64,000 bases of DNA. Source: Psammoneis japonica. Its lineage: Eukaryota. How positions within the stretch are numbered: the first letter of the stretch is position 1; each line of letters begins with the position of its first letter. The stretch covers positions 124,001 to 188,000 of the forward strand of contig QPGO01000007.1 of assembly GCA_008632985.1 (NCBI GenBank), written 5' to 3'. The notes below the pieces were generated by a model. It was not told where the DNA came from and did no database searches. It worked only from the letters and a program-made list of their open reading frames with translations. Made by a program: the position numbers and the translations under genes. This document shows positions 4,641-64,000 of the stretch, in pieces.

Positions 4641-4883
4641 GCAAGTGGTTGGAAGACCCATCACCTGAATCATCCACTTGTTTGTCCCAAGCTCAAAACA
4701 CCATGCTGGTGCCTTTTGTGGTGGGGCTGCTGCTTTTGTTGGTGGTGAGATGGGAGACTCTCATTGACCAGGACAAAGACCCCACTTGTTGTTTTGTGCA
4801 CTTTGCCCCAGTTGTCCTGCAAGAGGGACAACCCATCTGCACAGAATGAGGAGTGCTGGCAAGGTTTTTCAGAGACCTGCTGT

Positions 4884-7804: not shown

Positions 7805-7814
7805 ATGTCAAGCA

Positions 7815-7862
<48 letters not shown>

Positions 7863-10800
7863 CGCCGCCTCTACAACCTTCATTCGTGAATCAACCTACC
7901 ACCGCGGCCAACATGCAGCAACAACCGCCTCCTCAACAGCAAGATCAGCAATACATGCAGCAGCAGCAGCAGCAGCAGCAGCAAATGATGTACCAGCAGC
8001 AACAACTTATGCATGATCAGCAACAGCAGCAGCCGATAATGCACCCTGAACAGCACCCGAAGGTGAACCCTCAATTCCAACAACAGACGCACCCTATACA
8101 AAATTCAGAATCGTCGTCGGAAGAATCGGAAGGCAGTAGCACTACGGAATCCTCAGAGAGTGAGCACGCTGGTGACGGGCCTCTCTCACAGCTCGGGAAA
8201 CTCGGTTTGAGATTCAAATCTACACCGGTATCTGACGGACAGAATCTTGGATTCACTCCTACTCCAGCCATGATCAAGTCTCACCAGCAAGAGCAATCGC
8301 ATACTCTCGAGGGTGAATCGGAACGCCCGCTCTATCAATTTCAAGTGACAAAATTACGTTCTTGGCGAACGGGATACGTTCGGCTCTTGTGTCTGTACAA
8401 GGATCGTTTCTGTACCTTCGATCCAGACTCGCATCAAGTGACAAACACATGGCCATACTCCGGTTTGACGGAATGGTTGGTACTGCCCAAGGAAAAGGAC
8501 ACCATCCTGATACAGGCCAATGCCGACAAGCTCAAGTTCAAGTGTGAAAACGTTCGAGCGTCCCTCGTCCTGACGGCGTTGCTCGAATGCAAAATCAACA
8601 GCGAGGGAGGCAAAAGCACAGAGCCGTTTCCACTCTTTACGTCTTGTGTCCGCCAAACACGGCACGCAACACGCATTCCCGTGGCACTCGAGGTGGCGCC
8701 CCACGGCCTGGTGGAGCGTCATGTTGCCACTCGCCAAGTGATTCAGACCTATCTCTACAGAGACGTCGCGTCGGTCGCACTCACGTCGGACGACACGAGT
8801 GGACTCGAAATTCGAATGATGTCACCACGATTGATTCCGAAATCTCGACTCTACTTTTGTCAAACAAGTACTGGTCGTCAAGGACGAAGTGAGATTGTCA
8901 CGCTTATGCGTGAGAATTTCGAAGTGCTAGGTTTGGAGCTGCAGATGAGTGAAAGCCGAACGGCACAAGCTTGGATGGATCAACGTCATGCTCTCGGAAA
9001 AGAAGCTGGTCCAATCGTGGCATCGTGGAATGTCACCAAATCCACAAGGCGTCATGATGCTTCCATCGTTGGACCGGATCAGGGATGGACTGGTGGAACC
9101 GTGTCGAGGCGGTTGGCCATTACCGGTCGTGCGTGTTTGATGGAGATGGATTCCGGTGGTGTCGTTTCTTGTCGTCGTCTCGCCGACTTGCATGCGTTGG
9201 TGCGACACCGGAGCGATGAAATCACATTGGAATATGTCAGTGGGAGTCATCGAACCTACACGTCGTCGAACCGTGACGCCTTGTTGGTTTCAATCTTGGA
9301 TGCAGCCACAACTCGTGGAATGAATCCCACAGTGCATGTGACAGACGTGACGAGTGGAGGGTACTGCCTGACAACCTTTCATTCCATGGAGTTTAACTCT
9401 TCCATTGCACCACCAAAGGCGACCTCGGGTATATTCCATGCGATATCCATCCCGATTCACTGTCTCAAGCAACTCCACGCCGTCTCGACAGCCACGTACG
9501 CTTTCTTGGCGCACGGTTCAGAGTCGTCGTTGCACGCGGGAGGGCCTCTCAAGGTTGTAGGAGAATGCAGCAGGGTGCTGGAGGCCTGTCGTGAGTTTAA
9601 TGCCAGCGTTCCTCCCACTGGAGAGGGACTACCAGCTTCGCTGACAGACAAGCTAATTCTGGGAAGCGCCGGTGCGTTGTGGGGTATCATTTCGAAACTT
9701 CTGCACCGCAGTCCTTCGCAAGACGGTCGCACGGAAAACAGCCGCGACTGGCATCAAGCGGAACTGATTGCCTGTCCCATCTTTCAGGCTCTCTTTCGGT
9801 TGACACAGACACCAGCCGGTTACAAGGGATCGGTGGAGCTGACGACTATGCAGGCATGCATTCCACTTCTGCTGGGCCTCGACGATGATTTTTGCCAGTT
9901 CTGGGCGTTGCGTGTGCTTGGTGTCATTATTTCCGGACCCGTGGCCGCTGACGAGCGTGATAGAGAGATTGAATATGTAAACAAAAGCGTAATATTGAGG
10001 TCTGGTGGGGAGAGTATGGTCGAGGGCCTGGTGTCCACTCTGCTAGATCCCGGTTCGAAGCAACCTGGTGGACAGGAACAAGTTTCCGACTTGATTCTAA
10101 TGGTAACAAGCGATATACTTCAGAGCGTCTTGTGCTCTCACCATGACACGACTACCCCAGAACATTTTCAGCGCTTTATCGATGCGTTGGCAAAGCGGTA
10201 AGTCTCTTTGTTCCCTTGTGCTACTATGTTAATGCTTGTTGCAACTCACTCGAGCACACCATCTTTATCTTTCAGTCACCGCGCACTTCTTACGGCATTG
10301 ATGGCTACAACCCCATTCATCATTGAGAATACAGCGTTACTCCTTCATCTACTGACGACGCATGCACCTCACACTTCGACCGCCATTAGGGATGCAGCTC
10401 TGAGTTCCGGGATTTTGTTGCAGCATTTCTATGCGGCCAATTTCAGTCCATTAGAAGGTCAGCGATTCTTGAGTCGTTATCTTTGTAGTGTTTGGTTATC
10501 AGGACCAATGGAGTGTGACGAGAAGAGGTTGCTAAAGAGGATGGTTCCAACGGGTTTCCTTGGCTATCTGAAGATGCCTCCGCTGAGCCGAATGGAAGAA
10601 GAACAGCTAGATGCGCTGGAGCGAGATGCAACTGAGGAAGGGGTTGCAGAGAATGACCAGCATACGACAGACGATACAAAACCCGACTCTTCGGCGTCTG
10701 GAACTAACACGGCGCGTCTCAGATCTAGAATAGCTGTTGCTACCGCGAATGCACCGGGAGACGCTACCCCGGAGAACTTTCGTATCTTCTTCCATGTTCT

Positions 10801-13800
10801 GACAAAAGATCATGCTCTTGCAGATTTGATTTGGAATCAACAGACTCGTCGGGAACTTCGTATTGCTCTGGAAAGTGAAATACAGTCAGTTAGACGGGCT
10901 ACCGAAGCTCGTGGAGGCATCGAGAGGATTGCTTGGAATCACCAGCAGTTTACAGTGCAGTATCCTTCGTTGAGGGACGAGGTCCAAGTTGGCAGTGTCT
11001 ACATGCGTTTATGGCTACAAGCAGGTGACGCGTTTATCAAGACTTGGGAAGAACCTGTTAGATTGTTTGAGCTTTTGTTTCGGCGGTTCCTGTGCGAAAT
11101 CGACCGCAACGCTACGGTACGTGCATGCTAAGAGTTGGCGTCTTTCAGAAGCACAGTTTTCTTATGTATTTGATCCTCTTCGTGGATTGCAGGTGACCAT
11201 CATGTGCATAAGGTGCCTCGAGAGGCTCTACGCGATTCATTCCTCGAGTATTGGGACCTTTTCTGATATTATGATCTTGGTTCATTCCATGGCGACCACA
11301 AAGAGTACAGAAACACAACACCGGCTCCTCGGTCTTCTTTCTACACTTCTTGGCGTTTCTGCGGATGAAGAGAAATACGGCATTATCAATATACCTGGGA
11401 ATGCAGAGCAGCTTTTAAATGCTGAAAGCATGAGTCAACTCTGCCAGTTCGTTGCGTGGGGACACACCAATGGATTACAAGTAGGAAATCTACTGGCGAA
11501 AGTGCTGGGTGACTCAACAATAGGGAATCCAAGCATGTTGATAACTGATGGTTCTAGTTCGGGCCCCGCAGGAAACGCTTCGGAGCAGAGCAGATCTGTA
11601 GAATCTAAGAAGCAAAAGGCGGCAGACGCGCAATGCCCGCCTGTCTGGTTCGTAGCATCAACCGGAAGAATCCCGCCGCCTCCAGAAACGGTTCGCGGTC
11701 CTTTCCGAGTGTCTGAGTTAATGGGAATGATGCAAGAAGGGGATATTTTCCCGCATTCTCTCGTATCCGCATCTCATGTCGAAGTGTACGACGATGAGGA
11801 GGAGCCAGAGACTACAGGGTCGTCTAGTGTCCGTGAAGCACAGATTGACACCGGCAAATGGCGCATGATCGAACAAGTTTGGCAGCTACGTTGGCAGCTT
11901 TGCACGGATGGTGGCAGCAAAGGTGTTTACGACCCATCAGAAGTCGCTCTAATGGCCCTGCGATCACTTTCCAGGCTTGTCGATTTGCACAAAAGTGTGG
12001 ACACACGTGGAGTACCTTACTATCCGATTCCGATTGCAAAGCGGTTGCTTTGCGGACAAAGTCGTGAATTGTCAACGTTTGGTAATTCTGATGCAGAGAG
12101 GGGCATGTTTGACGCAGGTGTGGTTATTGATCAGCGAGACTCCCTCGCTATTCTATGTCAGAGTCTACTTTGCAATGACCATCGAGCAGTGGATGCTGCA
12201 GCTGATTTGCTCTGCAAATTGATGGAATACAACAACGAAGCCTGCTCTAAGCTATACCTTACGGGAGTTTTTCTGTTTGCATGCTGCTACACCGGTAGCA
12301 ACTTCCATCGTCTGGGAAAGCTACTCCATGCTACTCACTTAAAGCAGCATTTTCGCTCCGGTTTTGCAGCAGCTGCGAGGGAGGAGGATCTGCCTATGAA
12401 AGAGAGGAGTATCCTTGGAAACATGCTTCCTGAAGGGTTGCTCTTCATGCTCGTGAACTATGGTTACGAAAGATTTACGGAAGTCTTTGTTGGTTCTTTT
12501 GACACCCCAGAAGTAATATGGAACTTTGAAATGCGAAAGCACCTTGTAGAAATGATCCGCCAGCACCTTGGTGACTTTCCAAAACGATTGTGGCAGAATA
12601 CTACGACGAAATACGAGTATTGTCCATTCCCCGGTGTTGCCTACAAAAAGCTGGAAAGGGAGATTTTCTGCCATAACTATTACCTTGCGAACCTTTGCGA
12701 TGAAGCGCGATTTCCGGACTGGCCTGTGGCCGAACCAGTGGAAGTATTCCGGGCTTGTCTGGAGGAGTGGAAGCAGCAGATGAATCGCGACGAAGCAAAA
12801 GAAGAAGACGCCCTGGAAGAGGCGCGAAAGGTACTTAGTCTCAACACTGGTGACGGGGGTCGAGAGCTTCGTCGGGCGTATCGAAATCTAGCAAGGTAAG
12901 ATGTCTCGTACATATCGTTTTCCCTTTTGGGTGTGTGCGTTACTTACATTATGGCGCGATCTTTTCGTTAGGAAATTTCATCCTGACAAGGTACGATGTC
13001 TAGTACACAATGTTACCCCTTTGGTTGTGTTCGTGTCTCAAATACCTCCCCTTTTCATTTGACAGAACCCCGCAGGTCGGGAAATGTTTGAGGCGGTTCA
13101 ATCTGCGTACGAGCTGTTGCTACCAATTGTCGAAGGCGGAGCAACAATTACGGCTACAACATCGGGAAGCGAATCCAATGAAGATGAGGCTGACAACAGT
13201 ACAGATTGGCTTGGAGGGGGCCGAGCTCAAATGCAGTCTATGCATCTTCTGATTAAGACGCAGGTGCTGCTCTGTAGGCGATATGCCAAGGAAATAAGCA
13301 AGTACAAGTACCCAGCGTATGGAATGCTTCTTTCTTGCCTCGACATACCCTCCTCATGCCATACGGCCGACACTACCGGTAACGGTGACCACGGGACAGT
13401 ATTTTCGTCTTGCTTGTTGAAACCCAGTAGAGCCAGTTTCGTCCAGACAGCCGTGGAGCTGCTGTACCAAACTTGTTTGGTGTCTCCTTTAAATGCCGAG
13501 GAGCTTATTCTCGAAGGGGGGATCCGTGTTCTCGATTCCCTCCTCGACTTTTATACTGGCGTTGCGTGCCTTCTATCTGATGGAAAACAAAGAAAGGAAC
13601 TGTCTCGTGATTCGAAGCATGCCATCGCATCGAGTAAGGCTGTCCTTGATATTATTTCTCATGCTGTTCACACGATCGCAGGGATAGCATTCTATGAAAA
13701 CGGTAGGAAGGCAATTCTTTCACTCGACGACCCAGCTCGACTATGCGTCAACTGGAGAAAGTGTGTTGACGGAAGCTTAGTGGTGCAAACGAGTGGAAAC

Positions 13801-16800
13801 GATACGTCGTCGATTAAGAAGTTTGCCTTGGAAGGGATTGCCCATATGGCAAGAAACAGTGAAATCCAGAACCTTCTAATCGGAAGCGGAATTGTATGGC
13901 CACTCACAAGAAATCTTCTTGGGTATGACCCGACGCTTGATGTCGTATCGACCAAGTACGATGGACAAGAGAATGTAGTCACGTCGCAGGCTGCCAGTAA
14001 TTCCCACGCGAGGCTTTCAGCACGGGCTTTGGGACTTTTGTGCGGTGTCATGAGGGATGCATCCCTACAGTCACCGACAAACACGACGTTGTTCAATGCT
14101 ATGCATCACTTGCTCACACATCCAATTGCGCGACTTCTTCGGAATAAACGTACAGAGGATCTCCTGAGTACTTTGAACGCAAATGTAGAGACTCCTGTTC
14201 GAGTCTGGAACGTTCGCATGCGAGAGGAACTATCAGAGTTCCTTGACGCAGCGGAAAGCGATCGTGCTGGTGCCGGCTTCCGTCCTATCAATGAAGAACT
14301 GTCACCTGCAATGTCATTTGAATATAATGGCTTGAAGAATGAAATCGTGGTAGGCGGTATATATCTTCGAGTGTTCAATAGCATGGGTAGCGGCAGAGAA
14401 AGCCTACGAGAAATCTCGGATGCAGCAAAGTTTGGGAAGGAAGTTCTTCGTTTCATAGCTCGCAGCCTGAATGAGCATCCTGGCTTTCGTAGTAGGGCCC
14501 CTCCAGTTCCTCTCCCGGATAACGCGGATTCAGAGACACAGGGTCTTTCTGAGGAGGAAGCCCAGTTTGCTTCAGTCGACGATCAAGGCTTTTTGATGGC
14601 GATAAGCGCTCTCCGTCTTCTTGTTCGCGTTGACGGGCTAATCGACGACGTGCTTTGCGACGACAGTGCACATGGGTCATTGGTACTTTTGAGCTTGTTA
14701 GAGCTACCATTGAACAGCGAGGTGAGCATAGACGTAAAATCGCTTTTGTCCTACTGTGAGTGCGTATCATTGACTCTTGTTCTTTCCACAGGTGTTTGGC
14801 ATAGGGTCCGATGTATTGGCATTAATGACTCCGAAGCAAGAGTTTGCCGACGCTGTTTCGAGGCAGGGGGGATTGCAAAGGCTGCTGATGGTTTTAGAGC
14901 GACCCGAGAGCGAAAATAGCGATTCAAATCTTGAAGAAAGCGCTCAACCGGCCCGTGACGGCGCTAGACGACAAGAACAGGGCTGGTCAATTTTGGAGTC
15001 GCTTTCTTCGTCCCCATCTGTCGCATCGAAGCTAGTTCATTCGAGCGGGTGGCTAGAGTTGCTTGGTATCCTCGTCGGTTACTCTAAGTTTACGAAACAA
15101 TTTGTCGCGCGTCTCGGTGCGGGCAGAGTATTGTCTCGATTGTTGTGGGATCCCAAAACTGGTTCTATTGCAGGTACGTAAGAGAATGAGCACGGCGAGA
15201 ACCCACAATCTCGCGTTTTTCTTATCTCAAAGTAGCTGACACGTAGTTTTGTAATTTGCACACAGCACCATTGATACAGAGGTTTCTCCCCGCAACCCTG
15301 GCCGTAATTTTGAAGGAAGAGGGTCCAGATGTCATGCTAAAGGTTTTCGATGGGGAGAGTGAAACCCCCGAACTGATTTGGGATGCTTCGATGAGAGGAG
15401 AAGTCAGGAAGGTGATCGCAGAGCAGCTAAATATGCTCGTTCCTGCTAATGAGGAACGTCTGGTGCATTGTGATAGCTTCAGCCTGCCCACCGATGTTCA
15501 CGTTCGTTATAGGAAACTAGAGGACGAATTGTATATTGGGGGCGTTTACGTGCGGTTGTTCTTAAAAGAACCAACCTTCCGACTCCGCGATCCGACTTCC
15601 TTTTTAGAAATGCTGCTCTTGAGGTGGACGCAAGAGTTGGAGTTGCTTACGTCGTCAGCAAAAGGCTCTGCATCGGCGACACCTTTGCAGGACAGTAGTG
15701 CTGTTGTAGAGGCAAAGCAAGATGCGCTTCAACTTGTCACCAGTGCAAGCGTGTACTTATGCAAGGTTCAGGAATCGCTCTGCGACAAACTGGCTCAGTG
15801 GGGCTACATGTCTCGGTGTTTGTCGCTGATGGAATCAGTTCTGTCGGTGGATCTCATTGGTACCCCTCTTGTCAGCATAATCCGATTGCTACATGTGGCT
15901 TCAAATCGACGCGTCAATGTTGAACGAATTGCTGTAGCATGTGGCAGCGACGGCAGGAATGGAATCGTTGATCTAGCAATTCAGTCTTTCGGGGCAGATC
16001 CTCTTCATCAGGATTGTGCCTTCATGGTGGAGCTCTTGAACAAGATTTTCAAAGAGGCTCTTGGCGACGTACACAACGCACCAAAGGCGTCGATTTCACA
16101 GCGTTTCGATTCTTCGGTGCCAGCACCGATCGATCCGACACCCCGGGCACAGCAGCATCGGCAGTCGAGTCAACCAAGTCACGATGCATGGCTAGATCAA
16201 GAGGCGGCATTCAACGCAATGGCTCCTTCTCCTGCACCAGGACCGGGGCCAGTATCAAAGTCGCAATTCGGAAAGGTTAAGGTGGATGCATTCGACGATC
16301 CATTGGCAATGTTTCGTCAAGAGCCAGCACAATCACAGGCAAATACACCTCTTCCGCCAGGGAGAGGCTCGTTGGGAACCGCCGGGCAGGCCCAACAGGA
16401 GGGGATTAGTGCTCGCCAAGGGATTAGTGCTCGCCAAGGGCTATCCCAGCAAGGTTTGTTCCAGAATGACTCCTCGATGCGGTCATATCAACCGGGAGCC
16501 CCAATACCAAATTCGCATGCTGTCTCGCACGTTATGCACAACACGACGGGCAATCTGCCCTCGCAGACCCAACAAAATAGTCAGGCGTCGCAATCCCATC
16601 CACCCTACGCCCTCAGCTCGATCACCCAGTCACAAGGCTGGAAGGTGCATGGCCAGTCGTCGACACAGTATGCTCCGCAGCAGCAGCAGGCTGTGTCCAC
16701 AGGTGTCTCTAGGGGGGGTCCAGTGTCGCAATATCAATCACCACCAAGTGTTCAGCATAGTGCAAACATGCCGCAGACTGGACCTAACGTAGGGCAAACG

Positions 16801-18042
16801 ACAACGCTACATACCCAGTACAACCAGCCGCAGCATTTTTCTCGACAGCAACCCCATCTTGCGCCGCTATCATCGAATTCGAATCAGCATATATCAGGGA
16901 GTCAGCAGATTCCGTATCAGCCTCAAGCCATGCCCGGGCAACAGATGCCGCCCCCGCAGGTATCGAGCCAGCAATACGAAACAGGAATGACGGCGGCACA
17001 GCAACAAGTACCCGTTCATCAGGCGATGCATCAACAAAACGCACCTTCTCACAACGCGGCTCAGCCCACAAATGAACCACAAATGAAGAGTCAGTTTCAA
17101 TCGCTGTCACCGGGAGGCCAAGCGCAGCAGCCGGCGCAACCGTCCCATTTGCCGCAATTGAGCAGTCAACCTGCACAGCAACAAACACGAACCGAACAGC
17201 ATCCTATGGCAGCAAATCAGATGCCGACTCAATCTTATTCTGCTCAACAAACGCATCAACCGTTGCCACAGGGAGGCCAAGGACTTCATATCCAAACAGG
17301 AACAAGACAGCAGCCTATGCCGACCAATTCGACACCGATGCGGAACCAATCTTACTCTGGTCAACAGGCGCATCAACCTTTACCACCTGGAGGCCAAGGA
17401 CACCATCCTATGTGGACGAGTCCGATGCCGAACCAATCTCACTCTGCTCAACAAACGGATCAGGTCCCTCAGTATCAGCATCAAGGTTTGAACCAGCCAC
17501 TGGAGCCAACCGTGTTAGCTCCTACCGGAGCTCATGCTCAACAAGGTACCGAACCAGCGCGACGCGTAGGTCCTCCACCCGCAGAACCGTCTCCTGTGCA
17601 GCGACCCTATCTCCCCAGTGCCGTTGAAGGGAGTGGTGTCGATGCACGCACGCCGATTGATCCTGCTGTAGTAGCAAATCAATCCATGCTGTCAATTCCC
17701 GGCGCACCGGGAAGCGCGCAAGGTCGGGTTTCACTGCTTCAGTCTGCACTTGCTTGCGAGCTGCCCCGTGTTTTGTTGCAAGACGTGTTGGAGAATTCAA
17801 CCCTGCAGTCCATCAAGGACCCCGCCTCCGCCAAGGTGCATGCAGTGGAGCTTCTGAAACTTTTAACCGTGGACCCCGGGTACGGACTCAAGTTCCAGTT
17901 GATTTTGGATGAGTTACCTGCCTGGAAAAAGTACAAGTCGCAGGATCATTCTCTTTTTATCACCGGCTCGGAGCAAAAGGCTGACTACTTCTTGACCGAT
18001 GGAGGAATGGGAGAAGCAAAGAAGATGTTGACGAACCAGTAA
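7805..18042 (+). CDS. RME8: RME-8/DNAJC13 (GRV2-like) endosomal J-domain protein, 3256 aa. Exons 7805-10197, 10276-11116, 11193-12895, 12972-12990, 13066-14721, 14792-15173, 15266-18042.
   Basis: IWN-type repeats (DLIWNQQTRREL, EVIWNFEMRKHL, ELIWDASMR), J domain RRAYRNLARKFHPDKNPAGREMFE, GYF-like segment, C-terminal WKKYKSQDHSLFI. All six introns are GT-AG, 70-92 bp, and splice in frame (9771 nt including stop). Confidence 0.93.
7814..8032 (+). repeat. CAG/CAA trinucleotide tracts encoding N-terminal polyglutamine of RME-8
   Basis: (cag)n runs at ~7817-7861 and ~7958-7984. Confidence 0.95.
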
Positions 18043-18088
18043 ACATTATAATATGCTGACACTGCGCACGAATCTCCACTTCTATCAT

Positions 18089-18246
18089 CATTGATTGTGT
18101 TCTGAGGTATACGGCACTTTTTCCATGCTTGTTGCGACCCGCTTCCGTGAGTCGAAAAATGACTCTGATTGATAGTGTTCTGAGGTAAACGGCACGTTCT
18201 CCATGCTTGTTGCGACCCGCTTCCGTGAGTCGAAAAATGACTCTGA
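18089..18246. repeat. 78-bp tandem duplication between the convergent RME-8 and monooxygenase 3' ends
   Basis: tctgaggta starts at 18101 and 18179. ccatgcttgttgcgacccgcttccgtgagtcgaaaaatgactctga occurs twice. Confidence 0.95.
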
Positions 18247-18406
18247 AAAAATGCACTTCGGTTCGCTGAACGGCAGTATCAATGTCTCTCTAGAGCAATC
18301 GATTCGTTGCGGTTCATGTTAGGAACATTGAAAAGTATTGGGAGCCTTATCTACTGCGATAGACAGCCTCAGAAGGGAAACGCTAAAAAATTATCACAAT
18401 ATGTAT

Positions 18407-19849
18407 CTAAGCAAGCCCAACGGACCTGTCAAAATGTTTCCGCTGGATCTTTAGGTTGCTCTTGCGACTCTTCTTGATACGTCCGGTCTGACTTGCGAAC
18501 CTGTAGACGTCACTGAGTTCGTATCCAAGCATGCACTGCGTAGTCGCCGAAGGCTTGACGGACAAGGGAAACTTACGCCAGAAAAAGTCACGAATTCCGT
18601 CCCTAACGAAGAGTTTTAGTTGGAGACTTGAACTCAACGCGTACAAGTGAAAGGACAATTCCGTCAGGGCGTGACCTTCTTTGACGCGTTCCTCACTAAA
18701 TGTAGGGAGAGCCTTGTCCCAATCATCGTGGTGAGTATCCAGCAACCGAATGAGAGTAGTGGCATCGCAAAGAGCTGTGTTCATTCCCAACGACAATGCC
18801 GGTGATGTTGCATGAGCGGCGTCACCCATTATGATCGAAGAGATTTTCTCCGAGTGGTAGGCACTACAGTGCAATTGACTTGTTGTACTCCAATCTTGTT
18901 GAACCCACTGCGTAGCAAGGTCTCCATAGTCTGACAACGTAAATCCTTGAAGATTTTCTCTCAGGTACTCTTCCACAACTTTTTTGTCTTTTGACTCGAG
19001 TTCTTCTGCAATAGGATTGCTCTTGAAGTGGCCAATCATGAGATTCATCATTCCGCCTGGCTGAGGACAACCTATGGTGACAAAATTGTTTAAGCTCTCA
19101 ATCGCAATGAAGAGACTATTTGGTGAAATTTCTTTTGGTCGTTCCACGTTGACCGACTTAAAAAGGGAAAATGTATCGGAAATGTCAAACAAGAGGTCAC
19201 GATGCTCTTTAAGCATGGCGTTTCTAACGGTGGAGCGAACACCATCGCAGCCAATGATGTAATCATAAGCAATGTATGCTTCCCCCAGCGTGTTGAGTTC
19301 TCGGTTCGAGCCTTGGGAGGACCCACGTACCAGCACTCGCTTGTGCTCACCGTCCACGTACAGAACTTTGGTCTGCCAGTGGACTGCCAAGTTCAACTTG
19401 TTGCCATGGGTTTCGAGAAGGAACTTGGAGCATGCTGACACAATCGCGTTTCGATCCACGACATAGTTTCGTGGAAGTTTCACGCCCAACGCCTTGAGTT
19501 TCTTGGGGATGGCTTGTTCAGGGACATGAAATACCTTTTCCCGGAAGAAAAAGGACTGGCTTTTGATGGGTGTTCCGATCTCTTTCACGTAGTTTTCATA
19601 GAGTCCAGGAACAGTTTTGAGAGCCTCTTGTCCTTTGTCGGAGAGACCAATCGTCCAGGAACGCTTGGTGGATAGGTCTGTCACTCCACCGAGGTCTTCA
19701 CCATCATCGACAAGCGTTACGTGGTACAGGTGTCCTCCTTGTTCTTGTTTCTGCTCGTTCCGGTGGAGCAAAAGAGCCGCCATCAGCAATCCACATGGAC
19801 CCGCCCCAACTATGACGATGCGCTTCATATGGCTTTGTCGGTTCGTCAT
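18407..19849 (-). CDS. FAD-dependent monooxygenase (kynurenine 3-monooxygenase-like), 480 aa, intronless
   Basis: Rossmann motif IVIVGAGPCG, DG motif IIGCDGVRS, GD motif MGDAAHATSPALSLGMNTALCD. Normal Tyr content. Confidence 0.88.
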   Translation of the reverse strand: MTNRQSHMKRIVIVGAGPCGLLMAALLLHRNEQKQEQGGHLYHVTLVDDGEDLGGVTDLSTKRSWTIGLSDKGQEALKTVPGLYENYVKEIGTPIKSQSFFFREKVFHVPEQAIPKKLKALGVKLPRNYVVDRNAIVSACSKFLLETHGNKLNLAVHWQTKVLYVDGEHKRVLVRGSSQGSNRELNTLGEAYIAYDYIIGCDGVRSTVRNAMLKEHRDLLFDISDTFSLFKSVNVERPKEISPNSLFIAIESLNNFVTIGCPQPGGMMNLMIGHFKSNPIAEELESKDKKVVEEYLRENLQGFTLSDYGDLATQWVQQDWSTTSQLHCSAYHSEKISSIIMGDAAHATSPALSLGMNTALCDATTLIRLLDTHHDDWDKALPTFSEERVKEGHALTELSFHLYALSSSLQLKLFVRDGIRDFFWRKFPLSVKPSATTQCMLGYELSDVYRFASQTGRIKKSRKSNLKIQRKHFDRSVGLA

Positions 19850-20791
19850 TGTAGTGTGAAGGGTCGGCGGCGGTGCTTTGAACTTCGTTTGCGACCTTCT
19901 TGTTCTCGTTGCAAGTCAAAAAATGAAGTAATTCGAATTCTGTGTGAAAGAGGCCTACTTACGGAGCTCCGAGCTCCAGACCACTCACCAAGGGACTACA
20001 GCAGCCAAAATGTGTTGGCTAGAACCCAGGCGGGTGGGTCGGGAGGGTCCTTTGGCTATCTACTTGTGTTAAAACAACACACAAACAACTTCACCTTTCA
20101 CCAAGCTTTCACAACATTTCGTCGTGTTTGTTGAAGATCCAATCCAGCAGGCAGAATGGAGTCGTGCACTCGTGACGTGGCGCGATACAATTTATTCGTA
20201 CCGGCATGTCTTCAGTCGTGGGAAGCTAAAGCCGAGCATCCGGTAATGTATGTGCTAAAGTATTTGAAAATTTTCGAAGGAACACGCACAACAGTTGAAA
20301 ATTACAGTAGGGCAATAGGCTGGGCATGTTTCGAAAATGACCCGTGACGTAGAATAACAAGCCCTTCGGGAGGGCATTGATGACCACGGCAAATCGTTTA
20401 CTCTAGTAGAGTCAGTCTTGGCGCCAAATGCCACGGCGCCGCACCCGGGATTTTTTAAATAAGGAAATTGTGCATTCGACCTAGAAATTATTTTTTTCAT
20501 GCGGAACACATGGCCGTTGACCAATGACACAAGCGTCCGTTGAATCCACAACGATGTCAACACAATTGATTGCAATCATTTCGGTCCTTATTTAAGAGCT
20601 TTTACTCCGATGACACGGGCTCATTGGTTTCCTTTGTGATGGAACAACATGAGCGTGGACACTTTTTTTGTTCCAAAAGGGTGTGCAAAATTTTCAACCC
20701 TCTTTTGGCCACAAAAAAATTGTGGAGCCAGTTGACAAATGAAGCTGAGTTGCACAACTCTAGCTCACAAACTGCCTCACAGCCAAGAAAA

Positions 20792-24689: not shown

Positions 24690-25563
24690 ACATTGCAGTC
24701 ATGGAGAGTGACTTGGTGCTGGAATCAATTGCATGCTCAAGCATCATTTTGAGGGACAGTGCATGCATTGCTTTTGTGTTGGCAGCCTTGAAATGTGTGG
24801 AGGTTGCTGCAATCAACTTGGAAAATGCTTGCTTGAGTGCACCGTGTGCCAAGAAGATTTGGCTTGAAGGTGGAACCAAGTGTGGTGAGTTCAATGGGTG
24901 TGCATTGGCTGTTGTGAGAGCACTTTGTGGATTGAAGAGTGCACGGTTTTTGTTGTGATTGGCACTTGTTTCTGCTTTGCACGACATGGGTTTCAAGTCA
25001 ATGCAAGCGGACCCTGATGCAGCATCAAGCTTGAGAGCAGCAGCAGCCCATGAAGATGGACATGAGTGCTGCAAGATGCCAATGGTCTGTGTCAACAATG
25101 CATTGACAGTGTTGCACTGAGGCAAGTCAGTTGTTGAGTCCATTGCTGGGCATTGCAAGATCAAGCCTGGGAGCAAAGGTGAGCTGAGGACACATTTGGG
25201 AGCAATGACAGAGAAGATTCAGATGCAGGATGGTCAGATGATTTGGAGCAGCTCACCAAGGGACTGCATCAAGAATGCAATCAAGACAATTGAGGACTTG
25301 CTGAGTGAGGATGGGGGTGGTGCAGCTCTGAAGAACAATGCAAAATTTCCATTTCCGTCAAAGTGCAAGGCTGAGTTGGACGTGACAGATGAACTGGGTC
25401 ACGAGTCAATGTCCCCACACTTGCAGCTCATTGGCACCACAAGGTGGGCAATCAAGTTGGGTTGCATTGATGTGTTGTTTGAAGTGTCTTTGCTTTCTCA
25501 TCATCAGGTGAATCCAAGGAAAGGTCATTTGGCAGCCTTGTGTCACATGTGTTCAGTGCTGTA
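24690..25563 (+). mobile_element. Decayed Ty1/Copia (CoDi-type) reverse transcriptase fragment
   Basis: CSSIILRDSACIAFVLAAL..ENACLSAPC..VRALCGLKSA; QLIGTTRWAIKLGCIDVLFEVSLLS..NPRKGHL. Conserved Tyr positions read Cys or His. Confidence 0.85.
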
Positions 25564-25983
25564 AAAATGACATCTTGATTAGAATCAAATAAAAAAGAAC
25601 AAGACTGCTTGGGGGGCATCTTTGGAAGTGAGATCGTTGAAGGCGGTCTGATCGCCAGTGTGTTTGGGGGCTTTCCCAGTGCAATTTGTGTGCACAAGAA
25701 AACACGCAGGATCTGTCCAGCATTCCCAAATGCCCCAATCGCACTGATTGACAGACCATTTTGGTGCAAATTCTGCGCAACTTTCTTCAACAGTCTCACT
25801 TCCAAAGACATCACCCACATTCTGCTCAAGAGATTGCATCCTTGCTCCTCACTCAACCTCCAATGGCAATCAATCAAATTGCGATTTGTGAGCAAAAATG
25901 ACGGAGTTCCGTTCTTGGTCATTTTCACTGGTTTGTTGGTTGTGCTGCAGTCCCCACTGCAATCTTAATGTCAAGAGCATTGA

Positions 25984-49910: not shown

Positions 49911-50025
49911 GCCTTTGTCTATCCAACATGTGTCTTTCCTGTGAAAGAATGAAGCAAATTGGTCCAGTGGTTGATGAGACATGGCTGCATGAAGCATGAT
50001 GAAAAGCTGTCCTTGGGTGCATCCC

Positions 50026-56800: not shown

Positions 56801-57258
56801 ACTTGGCATTGCACTGCCAGGCTCATGGGGTTTGTGCTGTGAGCTTCAAAAGAACCTCCAGCACACCACTCAGGACTCCCGGGTCTGAATCACTCCCAAC
56901 TCACACTCCACTTAAGATGATTTTTGGTCACTTGAACCCACCCTTGAGTCACAACCTGTTTGCACTCAGGAGCTTGTTCCATTGCAACCCATGCTCACTG
57001 GCTGCCATGATGCAGCCGGCCATGGTGCATGGTGCAGGCGGCGTGCTCATTCTGACAGACACCACTGTCCCACGAGCCGCCAAACTCTGCTTTGCCAATG
57101 GCCGTCACTGCATCCAATGTGATGCAGGACCCATTGTGTGGTGCACGCCTTTCCCCAAATGCATTGCCTCCCAGCTTGCCACCTGCAAAAACCCATGTGG
57201 CCCCATCACCAACAATGATTTGGAGCTGGCGGGCAGTGTCATCCAATCCCATGCCACT
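53880..57258 (+). mobile_element. Decayed Ngaro/DIRS-like retrotransposon (gag-like ORF, RT, RNase H), cut by the Copia LTR
   Basis: LSPIGAV..PRPIIDCTF, ESMKFGRAFDRIL, KIDLADGCHR, LPVGW..FCTATET, HVDDF, GAGGV, ITNNDLELAG. Confidence 0.8.
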
Positions 57259-57534
57259 TGACAGAAATTGAAGGCAAATGGCAAGAATTCAAACAACAAC
57301 TCCTTGCTGCTGTCTAAACAGCAGATGAGTCTCCACTCAGAGACCGTCACAGGAGCCGAAAGACGTGCAAGTCAGCACAATCGGGCTGCTGTTGTCATTC
57401 TTGTGAGCCTTGTGGCTCGAAAGCAAACTGCATCACGCGCAAACGCGCGGAACTAAAGCACACAAAACTGTGCACGGTGAACTAAACAGCGCGCGACATT
57501 TCGCGCGCACCCAAATCCTGTTCAAATCCTGTCA
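57259..57534 (-). repeat. 3' LTR of the Copia element (276 bp)
   Basis: Ends TGACAG...CTGTCA. Preceded on the minus strand by purine tract GGGGAG just after the RNase H region. Confidence 0.75.
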
Positions 57535-60500
57535 CTCCCCAGTTTGCTTGAGGAGCCACAGAAACAGACTCGACTTCAGATGGAATGAAGTTCCAGAACA
57601 TGAGGGGGCGCAGAAGGTCCCAGATTTGGGAGCAACCCCAATGCTTGCTGAGAATGTCAGCAGGGTTGCGGGAGCCTTCGATGAAGTGGAGCTCAAGGCA
57701 ACCAGAGGCAATCGCCTCACGCACACGGTGGAACAACAGTGTGGTGTGTCGCTTGTGTAACTTGGAGTGTGGGATGGTGGCACTGTCTACAACCGACTTG
57801 TTGTCACCGAACATGCAACTGACATTGCGGATCGGGACGCCAAGGTGGCGCAGGGTGATGCGCAGGTCGACAATCTGTTCGACACAAGTCCTTGCGGCAA
57901 CAAATTCAGACCCGCAGGTCGCAGTCTCCATGGTGGCTTGCTTCTTAGAGAACCAATCAGCCGGGAATTTGTTGAGGAAGTGGAGCATTCCCATGACAGA
58001 GCGTCCGGTGAGCATGCAATGGTGCAAGCTTGCATCGACGTAGTGGGCGGCAGTGACGAACTTGCCAAGGGGCGGTGGAGCGTCCTTCAGGATCATCTCT
58101 TCTGCTTCGCCGTGCACGGAATGCATCCATTCACAGGCCGGAGCAGGGAGATCCGAACAGTCGGGCTCTTCCGTGCGAACGCGGAGAGCGCCGTGTTGCA
58201 TCTTGGAGAGGCACCCACAGACGCGTTTGGCACGATCCAAGTGGCCTTGACGGGGTGCAGCTCGGAAGCTAGAGAGTGACTTGACGGCCGTGGCAATGTC
58301 AATTCGACCAAGGGACACTGCCCATTGGAGTGAACCAACAAGAGACTGGAACTTGTGAATGCCATCGGGCTCCAGCAGTTCGGAAGTGTCCAGTTCGGGG
58401 TGGTCACCCTTCTCCAGAGGTGACAGGGCATTGGTGGCAGGTTTCTCCCCAAACAGTCAGGTGCAGCTGTCGACCATGCGCTCGATGTACTTGCGCGGAG
58501 ACAGGCACAAGGTGCCGTCGGGATCCCGGGAAAAGTCGCAACCCAGATGGAACTCAATGGGTCCCGCACCCTTGAGCTTGAACTTGCACTTTTCCGTGAG
58601 AGTGTCGACAAAAGATTGAGGGTCCTTCACAGCAATGGCAAGGTCATCCACACAAACGGCAATGTGTTCACAGTGGTCGCCGTTCCTGCGCATCCAAATG
58701 TCGGGTTCGGCGCGGCAGGGGAAGAAGCCTTCAGCTCGCAGGCAGTCGGCGAAGCGCTCATGCCAGCGGAGACCGGAGCTGCGCAGTCCACACAGGGCCT
58801 TGTGGATGACAAGGATGTGTCCTTCGAGTTTGCCAAATTCGGGTCTGGCTGCAATGTAGAGCTTCTCCTTGGTGGTGGCTTCAAGGCAGGCATTGCCAAT
58901 GTCGGTGGCCCATGTCTCCAACTCGTTGAGTTCGGCCAGGAAAATCATCAGCCGAAGGCCACGGAGGGAGACTGCTCCGGAGTGGACACTGTCGATGGGT
59001 ACGTCCGTGAGGTGCCCATCGGCTGCGAGTTGTGCTTTGTGGCGACCGTCGTGTTTCACGTCGCACACCAGGTGCACTCAGATCTTCTTGTGTCCAGCAG
59101 GAGGAGTGGAAGACTCGAAGGGCCCGCAGTCATGGAAGACTTCGTATTCCCCGAGTTGGTCCATCTCGAGATTAGTTGCGTCTCCCCATTTGCGGTTGCC
59201 GTTGCGTTCGTCTGGTGACATGGCATGTTTGCAGTTCTGGGGAACTTCGCATCCGTGCTTGCAGCGAGGTGCAGTGCGGAAGGAGCGAAGCTTGGCTTGG
59301 TTGGCCATGCGAAATGGCTTCTTCTGGTGCCTCGCGATGGTGCGGAACCGCTTCCAGCCATCAGTGTCGAGAAGTCCGTTCTCTCGTGCACAGATGGCGC
59401 AGGTGACGGGGTCATCCTTGGTGATGATGGCAAGAGGCTCGGACGTGATCTCCCCACTTTCCCATTCAAGCATGATGTTGTAGCTTGAGCCTTTCCAGGT
59501 TGGGTCATGAGGCTTCAGAGGTCCTTCGTGTGACACGATGTGTCGAAATTTCCAAACAGCAGTGTCTTCGTCTTCTCGCTCAATGTGATTCATGATGTCG
59601 TTGCAGGCAAGGACTTCCTCGCATTCATCATTGTTGACAGAGCAGACGAACTTAGTGAGCTTGGGATTGCCGTTCACTTTCCATTCGTGGTCTTCGACGG
59701 CCTTGACGATGCGAGCTCTGTGGCGTTGTCCGTCCTCTTGTGGCTGCATGAGGAAGGTGCGTCCGATGATGTCTTGCGGATCGAAAACTGGCATCTTGGG
59801 TGTCCTGATCTCCCCATCAGGAGAATCGACGGGGTTGTCGTCATGGCGAGATTTGATGATGGGTTCAGGTGGCTCCCCATCAGGAGGATCAAGATGCAGG
59901 TTTCGAACGGGCAGGATCGGTGGCAGCGGATCGTACGTTGGACCGGCAGAGGATCTTCTGAGTCTCGTCAGAGAGAATCTTGAAGGTCATCTGGTGGCCG
60001 ACGTGCTCAGCAATGCCAACAAAGCATCCACGCAACTCACGGGATTCGGATGGCCAATCGGAGTCATCGAGGTGGAAGTGCACGGGTTCCCACCAGTGAA
60101 AGCGAAGCAATGGGCTGATGTCCGGGGTGGAGCCAGTGAGAGTCTCGAGGGGCGTGCGCCAGTGGAGACGTGGGGACGCTGCATGGTTGAGCATGAAGCA
60201 CACGCACATGAGCGCCAGCAGCCATGTGTGGGCAGGTGAACCGAAACGATCCATGACAGTGTTTGCCATGCGCTTCACGGTCTGGTGTCAACGCTCGGCA
60301 AAGTTTTGGTGTTGCTGGTGAGGCTCACTTTGCCAGCTGGAGATGAAGAGGGCTCGTAGAATCCCGAGCACCTTGTTGCTGATCTCAACTTGAGCACGGT
60401 CGCCAATGAGTTTGGATGGGGCACCACGCTCACGGATCTGATCCTCGAGTGTGTTGACAAACTCCTTGTCCGTCTTGGTGCCACAGACGTCAGTGACGGT

Positions 60501-63500
60501 GGACTCGGTGCCAACAAACAGTTGGGCGCTGGTGCAGCCAGAGTCGACGGCCGGGGTGTCGGCACAAATGGTGTCAGTGGCGATGGGCTCGTTGCGGCGG
60601 TGCACATTGAGGGCGGGGTTGGGTGATTTGTGGGCCTTCCTAAGGTGTGCACTGGCGGGCATGCGGACGCACTGCGTGGTGCAGTCAAAAGTGCGACGGA
60701 CCGTGTCGGCAGGTGGGAAGCCAAAGTGAGGCCGAAGAGACTCGAAGGGGGGGTCCTTGGGCTGCACAGTGCGCTCTGGGGGCGGAACGTCGTCGTCCTT
60801 GGGGTCAATCGCGTGTAGATGACACTCGTAGAACACGTCATCGTTCGGAATGAGGTGATCATCAAGGGCGGATGCGTGATCGGCAGACAAGGAAGCGGAC
60901 ATGATGGCCTCGTTGACAACGACACGATGACGGCAGTTGCTGCATTCGTCAAATGGGTTGGCAGTGGGATCATCCTGCAGGTCAGAGATCGCGTCGTGCC
61001 ACTGGTCATCGTCAGTGACAGAGTGATCGAGGACGGAAGGATCCCATGTGTCATCACCGGTGAGGATGACATGGGGCAGGGTGTCCCATTCGGCGTCAGT
61101 GCAAGGTCGCATGGCAACACAAGGCAGGCTGCCCTTGATGTCAATGGGGATGACATGGCCATCAGGAGTGGCAACACGTTGCAAGCCGTTGGGCACCTTG
61201 ACAGAGCGATCGTTGACATCCTGTTTGCACCACTCGAGCTGGCCGCAGGAATGGATGGTCTTGCCCTTGCCCGTGCATGTGCACTGATGGAGGATGGTGA
61301 TGACGGGACCACGCTGGGTCTCAATGACGGCACCCGCGGTGACAACAGGGATGTCCACCAATTGATGGTCATCAATGCCCTGAACGTCGACTTGGCGAGA
61401 GGTGCGTGCAATGACGCAAACGTCGTCGCCAGCAATGCCGCCATTGGCCCCACGATCGACCAGAGCACCAGTGCGTGTGGAGCGATGAGCAGAGGCAGAG
61501 CAAATGACATTGTGGTTGTCAACGCGACGGCAAGTGCGGCCGTTGAGTTCTGTGTCATCGGCAGAAGCTGGCGGGGTAGAGGGAGTGGAGGATGGCCCCG
61601 GTCGACTGGCGTTGGGGGCTTGGTTAGGAGACAACAGACGTTGCAGATCACCGGGTGGCAGTGGCTTGCGCTTGGTGAGGTGCGCCAGGATGGGATCATC
61701 CGAAGTGGCATCCACACTTGGAGCGGAGTCACCAGAGTCAGCAGGAGTCGTGTTGGACAAGTTGACATCACCGTCACTCCCAAGGCGTTGGTCGTGAAGG
61801 TTGGCCGCAATGGACTCATGGCAGTTGCTGGCTCGCGGGTTGCGGGGAGGCGGACGAGAATGCTCAAGGATGATCGCCTTGGAGGAATGGGGCAACGAAT
61901 CCCAAATCCGTTGGTGGTCGGGAGGGAGACGTTTCCATTGGTCGCCGGTGAGGCTGGGACCACGGGTGCAGGCAGCATTGGCCTGAAGGACGTCAATGTC
62001 GCTGTCAATGTCGTAGAACACATCGTCGGACGGTTCCTCGGAGTGGACATCGTGTGCGCACATGGCACGTCAGGGAGCTCGAGGTGTCGTCTTGGGTTGA
62101 AACGCACTGTTGCATTGAGCCGCTGCGGAGAGGAGCAAGCCACAGCATTGATCGCACGTGAGGCTCTTGCCACTCTGCGCATGATGCTGATCAGCTTGGT
62201 TCTTGACAGCACGGAGTTCCTCGACAGGGTGTGCGGCATTCTCGAGCATGATGCGCTTCTGTCCTTCAGAGAAGTGGTCACTGGCCGGGATGAGTGCCTC
62301 GTGCTTGCGCAACTGATCTTGCCAATGAAGGATGAACCCGTGGGTCAGACCTTTCCAAGCAACCATCACCAAGACGTGCGGTGGTGAGGTGCGCGAGCAA
62401 GGTGGAGGACTCGACAGATGCGCGGGTGGAGGCAAGCGCACACTCAGACAAGGCGCGGCAGACGGTCTGGGCGTCAGAAGACCCCACATTTTCGCGAATG
62501 AGAGCCTTGCCCTTGTCGGTGAGAAGAATGCGTTCGAAGACAGCGAACATGCACTTTTGCTGTTCAGCAAAGAGCAGTTTGTCTTCGGGGCTGGTCGGTT
62601 TGTACGACGAGTCTAGAATGCACTCGACATCTTGGGCACGGGCTTGTGCCACAAGTGAGGTGTGCCAAGTGTGCCACTGCTTGTCGGATTTGAGAGCCGT
62701 GAAAGCGGTGGGGTCACGCTTGATGCCTCGCTTGAAGTCTCGCACCGGGTCGCGTGCCTTGGTCGGGTTGGTGACATGCAGAGGTGCGATGGGTGAGCTG
62801 CCGACGGACACAGAAGACATGCAGTCGGGGCTGAGGCGGCAGGCAAGGAACTCGTCATGCGTGAACAACGAGGAGTCATTGGCAATGTCAAGACCTTCGT
62901 GTGCTTTGACAATGTACAGACTAGTTGGAGCTGCTAACATGTTCTTATAACCACGGGGCAAAGGGATCACATCAGTGCCGTTGTCGCACTCAAGCGAGTC
63001 GATTTGGGACGGTATGAACGTGAACAGTTCTTGATGCGAGTCCGTGCCGTCTTGGGTCAAAGCCAAACGAAGAGGGCTCCCAGCACCTTGGGCAAGCACA
63101 GTTCCAACAATGTGCTCGAAACCATCGGTTTGTTGCTGACGAGTGAGAACCATGGCAGACAAAAGTGGTGTCAGGACAAGCAATTCTTGTTGGGAAGCGA
63201 AGGTAGACTTGAAACTTGGGTGAGAACAGACTTGACTTGAAGTGGACTTGACTTGAAATCTTGAACTGCCTTAAAATCAGAAGTCGCCGGGCTGTGCCAT
63301 CCCGTTCGTTGTCAAGTGCTAAACTTCCTGTCTGGTCCGTAGAGTTGTGCCGGCACGTCCAAACCCACAGCCAGTGGCGCTTTGGGTTGCTTGCAAGCGG
63401 AGCAGCGGGTTGTAAACCCCTGCAGGTGAGCTGACTAGAGGTGGACAAGACCCCCGAACCGTTCTCATTTTACATCGGTTGGATTTCCCGATCAGGCTGG

Positions 63501-64000
63501 CCAGTTGACGCAGGCGTCAGGCGCTGTGGACGAACGAACAAACGCGGGAAAGCACCCTTGCCCCAACGCAGGCTGCAATCACGGCTGCTTGCTCTCACAG
63601 TCGTCCTCGTGGACCTGGCAGAACTGCAGAGCACCAGCAGTCCGGGGCAGATCAGGTGCAATGGACTCGGTGTGCTTGCAGAGTGGCAGCAAAACCGCAG
63701 TCCGAAGAGTGGGTGCAAGTTCTTGGCCGTGAAGACATGCACACACACATGTCTTCAGCGACGAAGATCCTTGAACATGTGGGGTTCTTGACCGTTGACC
63801 GATGAATGGGTGTGTCAAGGGATGAGGATCAAGGATGGACTTGGATGTGACCGTTGAATGTGTGTCTTCAGCGATCAAAGGCAGTGTGATCAATCCAGAC
63901 ATCCAGCGGCAAGGAGACTTGACGGTGACGTTAACTTCCTGCCGATGCCCTGGTGTTGAATGCGCGCAGACTTGCCGATGTACGTAGAATGCACACGGAG
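57259..64000 (-). mobile_element. Ty1/Copia (CoDi-type) LTR retrotransposon: gag, PR, INT, RT, RNase H; 5' LTR not seen within the window
   Basis: gag RDFKRGIKRD; PR ALVDRGANGG; INT SEPHQQHQNFAER; RT DIGNACLEA, KALCGLRSSG, CVDDL; RH ETATCGSEF, FGDNKSVV, NPADILSK. CGA>TGA stops at 59078 and 58457, plus frameshifts. Confidence 0.93.

Follow-up and report, generated by a model that had tools for sequence, protein, structure and literature searches.

In mutation-accumulation lines of the rhizarian Bigelowiella natans, two integrated viral regions gained 231 mutations, of which 230 were A-to-G or T-to-C, and all were at TpA (Mettrop et al., bioRxiv 10.64898/2026.01.13.699255). The available part of that preprint also reports low-TpA genes to be enriched in reverse transcriptase (RT) and DDE domains, proposes an ADAT2-like deaminase and quotes ADAR as favouring U before the edited A; in the same part the term CpG is absent and the relation to CpG decay is untreated (bioRxiv 10.64898/2026.01.13.699255). 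Here we describe what appears to be the second case of TpA-targeted hypermutation, in a phylogenetically distant host, where it struck long terminal repeat (LTR) retrotransposons and is near saturation. The DNA analysed is a stretch of 64,000 nucleotides from Psammoneis japonica (contig QPGO01000007.1, positions 124,001 to 188,000; hereafter the window), and the element in question, which has the features of a degenerate CoDi-like Ty1/copia copy, lies on its minus strand from 57259 to at least 63270. To the picture from B. natans it would add that TpA loss outruns CpG decay more than tenfold.

The element resembles the B. natans regions, as the available part of the preprint describes them, in that TpA is turned into TpG or CpA, that foreign or mobile DNA only is affected, and that low TpA is accompanied by high CpA and TpG. 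It differs from them in its host, a stramenopile of the diatom/bolidophyte lineage, and in its extent, which is near saturation (observed/expected ratio [O/E] of TpA 0.02–0.1 over repeat tracts, compared with a Rho of 0.45 in the nucleocytoplasmic large DNA virus region of B. natans). Furthermore, the B. natans mutations were counted in mutation-accumulation lines, whereas here they are known from end states of sequence alone. Fungal repeat-induced point mutation (RIP) likewise represents a repeat-aimed transition hypermutation of chromosomal DNA that kills transposon frames and leaves a dinucleotide signature. However, RIP converts CpA to TpA, enriching TpA and lowering GC, whereas here TpA is destroyed, CpA and TpG are enriched and GC is raised; we rejected RIP itself as a candidate because TpA O/E of 0.02–0.19 and CpA/TpG of 1.4–2.0 constitute the opposite signature. 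Editing by ADAR or APOBEC3 is comparable in that deaminase-type transitions become fixed in retroelement copies, but it targets a single strand of RNA or cDNA and produces one-strand pre-integration clusters, while here the outcomes on both strands are interspersed and DNA that is not of retroelement origin is purged too.

Diatom transposons are described as CpG-methylated, and decay of the kind expected from 5-methylcytosine deamination is also represented at this locus, at four conserved Arg codons and at codons 381, 510, 597 and 751 of the element, and near completion in its older neighbours. Unlike the TpA changes, it is slower here, and it occurs without Tyr loss in four metagenomic relatives (L068, L063, L071, and L012). 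The element shares with the diatom CoDi Ty1/copia elements (Maumus et al. 2009, PMC2806351) an RVT_2 reverse transcriptase, and its relatives are hundreds of sequences in marine and freshwater metagenomes and one from Cylindrotheca; unlike the CoDi elements, this copy is non-functional. Full-text searches for a TpA-hypermutation signature returned the 2026 B. natans preprint only, and hypermutation, RIP, dinucleotide and deamination have no mention in the parts of the diatom transposon literature checked by term, PMC2806351 included. We consider it probable that the element is a dead, high-copy CoDi-like Ty1/copia copy which underwent targeted in-place TpA editing, as a hypermutation of the B. 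natans type, together with a separate and slower CpG decay.

Composition of the element and direction of change

The sequence-only reading described the element as rich in CG and nearly free of Tyr, and both descriptions hold. The strings cgtcgtcg (at 60788 and 61421) and gcgcgcg (at 57489) were located, and the minus-strand translation of 60288–62063 has two Tyr among 592 residues. Over the 5925 bases of 57259–63183 there are 31 TpA, compared with 274±13 in 200 mononucleotide shuffles of the same bases, and 400 CpG. The corresponding O/E values are 0.11 for TpA, 0.85 for CpG, 1.60 for CpA and 1.36 for TpG, at a GC content of 0.569. Stop triplets on both strands of this interval comprise 12 TAA, 24 TAG and 239 TGA, and 48 open reading frames (ORFs) of at least 80 amino acids occur within 7.5 kb. 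The scarcity of TAA and TAG on either strand is the reason why all six frames look open, and the long open frames of edited repeats are thus a trap for gene callers. The parts of the element are as follows.

57259..57481, minus strand: 3' untranslated end and probable 3' LTR (depth peak at 57253–57503)
57482..59986, minus strand: RT-RNase H frame P0001, 834 residues, with in-frame TGA at 59078–59080 and 58457–58459
58457..59077, minus strand: RVT_2 domain (Pfam PF07727)
58643..58666, minus strand: RT active-site block HIAVCVDD (YIAVYVDD in the family), from the translation against the alignment consensus
59889..62612, minus strand: protease-integrase frame P0002, with in-frame TGA at 62070–62072, 60288–60290 and 59889–59891
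59909, no strand: frame change from integrase to RT frames, many other copies being one letter shorter there
62278..63270, minus strand: gag-like open frame, 330 residues, 3 Tyr; named gag from position only, without a Pfam family
62360..62362, no strand: frame change from gag to protease frames, other copies being one letter shorter there
63271..64000, minus strand: upstream high-copy sequence, either 5' untranslated region/LTR of the element or another repeat (repeat-level depth to 64000)

To assign a direction to the changes, conserved columns were considered: 386 in the RT-RNase H part, each at least 80% conserved among homologues, and 133 in the integrase part, from 29 long homologues. 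We count only these columns, with their 27 Tyr and 37 CGN-coded Arg, because the relatives are only 57–73% identical to the element. In the RT-RNase H part the element keeps 338 of the 386 columns, and all residue types other than Tyr are retained at 78% or more. Only 4 of 22 conserved Tyr are kept; eleven have become Cys, five His, one Trp and one Phe. The integrase part, comprising residues 621–904 of P0002 aligned to the pre-RT region of the long homologues, keeps 114 of its 133 conserved columns, including 10 of 11 Arg, but none of its five Tyr (three Cys, one His, one Phe). For both parts together 4 of 27 Tyr survive; 20 of the 27 codons are now TGY or CAY (14 and 6, respectively, Y being a pyrimidine), one codes for Trp and two for Phe. 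The changes are thus located at TpA, with TpG or CpA as the product. The RT motif change from YIAVYVDD to HIAVCVDD that had been read from the sequence is indeed seen in the RT translation against the family consensus: codon 441 is CAC where 97% of homologues have Tyr, and codon 445 is TGT where 99% do.

Classification of the 48 RT-RNase H mismatches by hand assigned 23 to the TpA type, 10 to the CpG type and 15 to other changes. Beyond Tyr, the TpA-type mismatches include changes of GTA to GCA, of CTA to CCA and of ATA to ATG; where two codons adjoin, T|A has also turned into T|G. Conserved Arg was kept at 35 of 39 columns (33 CGN and 2 AGR), and the four losses, to His, Gln and two TGA stops, are all of the CpG type; CpG-type decay is also apparent at private TG or CA sites where other copies carry CG. 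Expressed per site, loss is -ln(4/27) = 1.9 for TpA and -ln(33/37) = 0.11 for the conserved CGN Arg, a ratio of ~17 (~14 from the RT-RNase H part alone). TpA loss is ~50 times the upper bound for other change, which we set at a few percent from the 15 other mismatches in 386 columns. These rates support the earlier proposal that TpA conversion is the faster process and an active one rather than drift.

The CpG of the element appear to be old. Conserved His (19/19), Gln (12/13), Cys (5/7) and Trp (15/16) were largely kept, and none of these 55 codons has turned to CGN. Together with the 33 of 37 CGN Arg kept, this indicates that the CpG were not newly made, and an origin from CA>CG, which had been named as the case that would undo the claim, fails on these counts. 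Conserved Tyr likewise never became CGY (0/27).

Other copies in the same genome provide a further comparison. Contigs of four runs (X1–X4) were placed on the element at 80% likeness, with 14068 X1 pieces on 57253–64000. Nearly all differences among copies in X1 are transitions, namely 130 A>G, 126 C>T, 109 G>A and 111 T>C; transversions total 71. At conserved Tyr codons 335, 399, 625 and 714 alternative letters are common, with T in first position at 50–74% and G in second position at 44–63% (three codons). Two Tyr codons that are Cys-coded in the window have A at position 2 in 74–76% of the depth, codon 399 has C at position 1 in 63%, and at codon 445 76% of the X1 depth at 58653 gives TAT. 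That one and the same Tyr codon can be TGY, CAY or TAY in different copies implies that editing hit copies or lineages separately and that some copies are less edited. Losses of CpG private to the window copy were found at codons 381 (Gly to Arg), 510 (CGA to TGA), 597 and 751 (TCG to TTG), where 93–100% of the other depth carries CG.

Relatives of the element and sequence context

A search with P0001 returned 1160 protein homologues, the best at 62–69% identity and one named from the diatom Cylindrotheca. Among 117 homologous proteins, Tyr averages 4.4% (2.3–6.1) and Cys 1.2%, as compared to 0.7% and 0.2% Tyr and 3.5% Cys in the element. The RT-RNase H parts of 80 metagenomic loci, which are 57–73% identical to the element in amino-acid sequence, have a mean TpA O/E of 0.71 (0.27–1.06), a CpG O/E of 0.72 (0.08–1.26) and 4.4% Tyr, whereas the same measures in the element are 0.11, 0.80 and 0.6%. 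A family that is natively poor in TpA and Tyr, the other case that would have undone the earlier claim, is therefore not what these sequences indicate. The closest relative, L001, has a GC content of 0.54, with TpA at 4.4% and CpG at 8.3% of dinucleotides, and the element 0.57, 0.5% and 6.5%, respectively. The path of GC content from 0.54 in L001 through 0.57 in the element to 0.45–0.50 in the older tracts of the window, where CpG is nearly gone, fits two successive steps.

Four loci have the lowest TpA O/E, namely L040 (0.27), L073 (0.29), L065 (0.35) and L051 (0.40), with CpG O/E of 0.58–0.78. We regard these as partly edited Copia loci, with the following extents.

L040, 461–1975
L073, 1551–2759
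L065, 58–1476
L051, 3–1382

Conserved Tyr kept at these loci number 8/15, 7/13, 10/14 and 11/14, respectively, and 16 of the 21 lost are Cys or His; L051 has normal TpA in the 2 kb downstream of the element. No other of the 80 loci has lost conserved Tyr to any substantial degree, the remaining 76 keeping at least 12 of 15. The converse state also occurs. Loci L068, L063, L071 and L012 are CpG-poor (O/E 0.08, 0.15, 0.16 and 0.18) and keep 13–15 of 14–15 Tyr, and with L029 and L003 they form a set of six with CpG O/E of 0.08–0.26, intact frames and the same Tyr retention; such CpG depletion without TpA editing presumably reflects other hosts. The existence of CpG-poor loci with Tyr intact and of TpA-poor loci with CpG means that the two decays are separable both ways.

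The best-scoring proteins, P0003, P0004 and P0110, were rejected as unmutated family members since they are two-unit gene calls of 43–55% identity. They consist of tandem RT-RNase H units on contigs of 0.18–1.9 Mb and resemble nested or tandem Copia elements called as one gene.

The base context of surviving TpA was compared between the repeat tracts (1–7000, 21001–46000, and 49001–64000) and the host genes of the window. Relative to host genes, TTAA stands at 5.4-fold, CTAA at 2.4 and CTAG at 1.6, while ATAC falls to 0.18, ATAG to 0.21 and ATAT to 0 of 32 on the expected scale; TTAA and CTAA/CTAG/CTAC survive better. ATAT is the most sensitive context whichever of the three data sets is considered: it is absent from the element and the repeat tracts, and the four partly edited loci retain it at 0.10 of its native density. 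Other contexts rank differently among the data sets. The order in the repeat tracts of the window is consistent with additive contributions from the base 5' of T, with sensitivity A > G > C > T. No mutator motif is claimed.

Extent of the element, older tracts and host genes

A Copia-type reverse transcriptase is present in the element (Pfam RVT_2 PF07727 at E 7.6e-21, with 75.2 bits where the cut-off is 31.6); besides it, a Pfam scan of the element frames gave nothing at E<=0.01, with no rve and no protease family. The element is broken by five in-frame stops, all TGA, and by the two frame changes. Its frames are given stop to stop, and the integrase and RT frames overlap at 59889–59986 and the gag and protease frames at 62278–62612. 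The family is very abundant, the summed word depth being 55000–425000 on the element and ~55–68 on single-copy flank in X1, a measure that is not a copy number.

Of the two ends first proposed, 57259 and 63183, the left one stands and the right one does not. Summed contig depth in X1 rises from 149 to 424740 at 57253, and loose contig ends at 57259 in X2–X4 represent other copies with other left flanks. Depth in 57253–57503 is 3–6 times that of the element interior, which fits a 3' LTR. On the right, the element must be longer than 63183 because the gag-like frame extends to 63270 and the depth remains that of a repeat as far as 64000; in 63271–64000 depth is 52731–122611, TpA O/E 0.12–0.28 and CpG O/E 0.71–0.81. 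This last interval has no similarity to 57200–57600, transition-tolerant scoring included, and the 5' LTR of the element is probably beyond 64000 or displaced. A tblastn search for a second copy inside the window gave only a distant Copia at 24.7 kb.

The remainder of the window divides into repeat tracts and host genes. The sequence-only reading held that the older neighbours of the element had lost both dinucleotides, and the bins of these tracts bear this out. In 1–7000, 21000–46000 and 49000–57000 there are 0–10 TpA per 500-base bin (mostly 0–3) with CpG O/E of 0.00–0.93 (mostly <0.5), and for all non-host bins of the window the TpA range is the same and CpG O/E runs from 0.00 to 1.02. TpA-free stretches reach 1395 bases. 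Host-gene bins (7.5–20.5 kb and 46.5–48.5 kb) have about 10–30 TpA per 500 bases and CpG O/E of 0.77–1.26. TpA density is 35.7 per kb in host genes versus 4.0 per kb in repeat tracts, and no 500-base repeat bin of the window combines high TpA with low CpG. The two features below are, respectively, the internal control with normal dinucleotides and the older Copia.

7784..19915: host genes DNAJC13/RME-8 (plus strand) and FAD monooxygenase (minus strand), TpA O/E 0.29–0.81, CpG O/E 0.77–1.25
24707..25573, plus strand: older Copia of another family, 26–33% identity by tblastn, 87 bits with the family profile

The change between the two kinds of DNA is sharp. A 622-base gap in TpA ends at 7313, after which TpA recurs at about every 25 bases, and dense TpA extends to 48601 and is followed by a 1130-base gap. 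Borders at 6691–7313, 20603–21107, 45525–46559 and 48601–49731 are tens to ~100 bases wide and lie 0.4–0.7 kb from the ends of coding frames. The DNAJC13/RME-8 gene (7784–18042) has its best named homologues in a Bacillariaceae metagenome-assembled genome (60%), three Triparma (61%), Corethron (56%) and Amphora (50%). Based on these homologues and the one Copia relative from Cylindrotheca, we assign the host to the diatom/bolidophyte lineage of ochrophytes and not to Bigelowiella. The nearest protein-atlas clusters to the FAD monooxygenase (feature similarity 0.99) are FAD-dependent oxidoreductase and kynurenine 3-monooxygenase, PF01494 FAD_binding_3; these clusters are bacterial-looking and uninformative on taxonomy.

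In the Copia at 24.7 kb the 288 residues aligned to the family profile are devoid of Tyr; its Tyr columns hold C, H or W and its Arg columns H, Q or C, in bins with 0–4 TpA and CpG O/E of 0.14–0.36. The left neighbour of the element at 54000–57258, called Ngaro-like earlier, is in an intermediate state of decay (GC 0.52–0.56, 0–3 TpA per 500 bases, CpG O/E 0.20–0.38), and none of its 10 ORFs gave a Pfam domain. Likewise no transposon domain was found by Pfam in 86 ORFs of the older TpA-poor tracts. These tracts do include a Ham1/ITPase-like fragment at 50029–50649 (minus strand; PF01725 at 2e-22, and 1e-25 to residues 12–124 of human ITPA), which sits in a CpG-poor tract with 1–3 TpA per 500 bases. 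As this is no transposon gene, editing was probably not limited to retroelements. The Ham1/ITPase family handles inosine nucleotides, which is curious in an edited tract. There is also a weak protein-kinase match at 27270–28157 (plus strand; 24.5 bits, short of Pfam's cut-off of 31.7) in TpA-poor DNA with CpG O/E of 0.3–0.5, which may be another edited host-gene remnant.

Explanations of the two decays and their meaning

The alignments and the dinucleotide counts show that the changes have a defined direction and specificity, the two decays are independent, and the purging is restricted to repeat tracts. We propose that a targeted transition process struck the element after its divergence from an active ancestor. 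Its effect on the palindromic TpA, giving TpG or CpA, would be a change of A to G in either of the two strands, and it would have removed >80% of TpA against a few percent of other substitutions. The editor would act in place on chromosomal repeat or foreign tracts and stop sharply at host genes; the continuous purged tracts, which include the Ham1/ITPase-like fragment and the kinase-like ORF, fit such action on resident DNA. Its enzyme would be a DNA adenine deaminase, for which the TadA/ADAT2 type is the leading candidate, following the B. natans preprint, and a targeting signal is presumed. The change from CpG to TpG or CpA would be a separate process, most likely deamination of 5-methylcytosine on the supposition that CpG of the element is methylated, that is ~14–17 times slower per site and barely begun in the element. 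The older neighbours would then represent the end state of both.

Several alternatives were weighed against targeted in-place editing. Retention of CpG may indicate that this copy is unmethylated, through escape from silencing or its position in chromatin, and not that it is young, in which event targeting would account for the decoupling and no order in time would be implied. Across TpA-poor bins CpG O/E does vary from 0.00 to 0.93 with no evident gradient, and among the relatives it runs from 0.08 to 1.26 regardless of TpA. However, an independent proxy of age points to youth, as 338 of 386 conserved columns survive in the element and Pfam recognises it, while the older tracts yield no transposon domains in 86 ORFs and the 24.7-kb Copia is barely alignable; the private CpG-type losses show in addition that CpG is decaying. 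We therefore regard this alternative as unlikely, but deserving of some weight. Slightly less weight goes to a chemistry of thymine, with T at TpA oxidised or modified to 5-hydroxymethyl- or 5-formyluracil, mispairing with G and yielding T-to-C. 5-Formyluracil mispairs, 5-hydroxymethyluracil favours TpA in dinoflagellates, and since TpA is its own reverse complement no sequence result separates a T modification from deamination of A to inosine. Nothing stands directly against it; the natural tRNA target of ADAT2 does have U before the edited A. The sole published proposal for the signature, in the available part of the B. natans preprint, is ADAT2-like adenine deamination.

Editing during the retrotransposition cycle, by an adenosine deaminase acting ADAR-like on genomic RNA and/or on cDNA so that copies are born edited, has a small chance of being correct. 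There is a modest sense bias, with 14 Tyr to Cys versus 6 Tyr to His, and with A 3.4 points below and G 3.4 points above L001 while C and T are unchanged; copies also differ in outcome at one site. Against it, the RT-RNase H mismatches, counted by hand, give 15 A-to-G and 8 T-to-C outcomes on the sense strand in 11 runs, with 11.4 expected and no clustering of same-strand outcomes by run count, and this interspersion speaks against editing of one strand of RNA or cDNA. For the same reason ADAR-type hyperediting, which is A-to-G, on the transcribed strand only and clustered, was rejected. The bias is moreover opposite in L040 (five Tyr to His, none to Cys), the TpA-free tracts span tens of kilobases and contain the Ham1/ITPase-like fragment and the kinase-like ORF, which are not retroelement genes, and the B. 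natans mutations, in the part of the preprint available, arise in resident chromosomal DNA. Two further possibilities are very improbable. A family natively poor in TpA and Tyr, or CpG newly made from CA or TG, could draw on positions 57713 and 59577, where the window has CG and nearly all copies TG, but the relatives average 4.4% Tyr with a minimum of 2.3% (n=117) and a TpA O/E of 0.71 (n=80), same-genome copies still have TAY, and neither the 55 conserved codons nor the 27 Tyr codons turned to CGN or CGY. It is equally hard to credit an assembly or base-calling artefact in which modified bases at repeat TpA are taken for G or C. No record gives the sequencing platform used for the window or for X1–X4, and the runs are one sample and maybe the assembly's own data; yet independent metagenome assemblies carry the same change of Tyr to Cys or His, and misreading would not yield both CA and TG at one site across copies, leave 2–30% of TpA, or co-vary with frameshifts, CpG loss and lost Pfam recognisability.

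Other observations weigh against targeted editing with slower CpG decay as we have set it out. CpG decay has already begun in the element, with 10 of the 48 mismatches and three of the five in-frame stops (these at Arg columns) attributable to it, and its CpG retention could mean that it is unmethylated and not that it is young. Ancestral states are based on relatives 57–73% identical, no new mutation was observed, so that the whole case is drawn from end states, and the window holds a single young element. X1–X4 represent one sample, possibly the source of the assembly itself, and are not independent confirmation, and the site-level comparison covers the best-supported 40 of 553 variable sites. 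At 57713 and 59577 the CG of the window faces TG in 96–100% of the other depth; either a few CpG were gained here or a large subfamily lost them early. The context preference is non-uniform, in that CTAA persists in the element but fails to do so in the four metagenomic loci. No LTR pair was found between 57200–57800 and 62900–64000 by repeat search, exact purine/pyrimidine matches or transition-tolerant alignment, the local alignment score of the latter being 36 against a shuffle maximum of 34. With regard to the earlier claim that TpA loss precedes CpG loss, the element and four relatives are TpA-poor with CpG kept, as it would predict, although the order in time rests on few elements.

Targeted in-place TpA editing, if this is the correct explanation, could be told apart from methyl-CpG decay and would be much the faster of the two. 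The coding capacity of transposons would be killed through loss of Tyr and not through stops, because TAA and TAG vanish. Conserved Tyr changed to Cys or His together with an excess of CA and TG offers a simple sequence test for it. Edited transposons would display spurious long ORFs in six frames, gain GC, escape profile searches and mislead age estimates that are based on transition-rich divergence. The occurrence of the signature both in repeats of the diatom lineage and among environmental relatives suggests that TpA editing is a defence general to marine protists. We see about an even chance that algae of the diatom lineage possess a RIP-like but chemically opposite defence, a DNA editor that would find repeat or foreign chromatin, convert TpA on both strands in an evolutionarily brief period following insertion, be independent of CpG methylation, favour TpA flanked by A/T (ATAT), act by Tyr loss instead of stops and be common enough for partly edited Copia copies to occur in unrelated environmental metagenomes, and that, together with the case of Bigelowiella, it would represent an old and widely distributed eukaryotic immunity.

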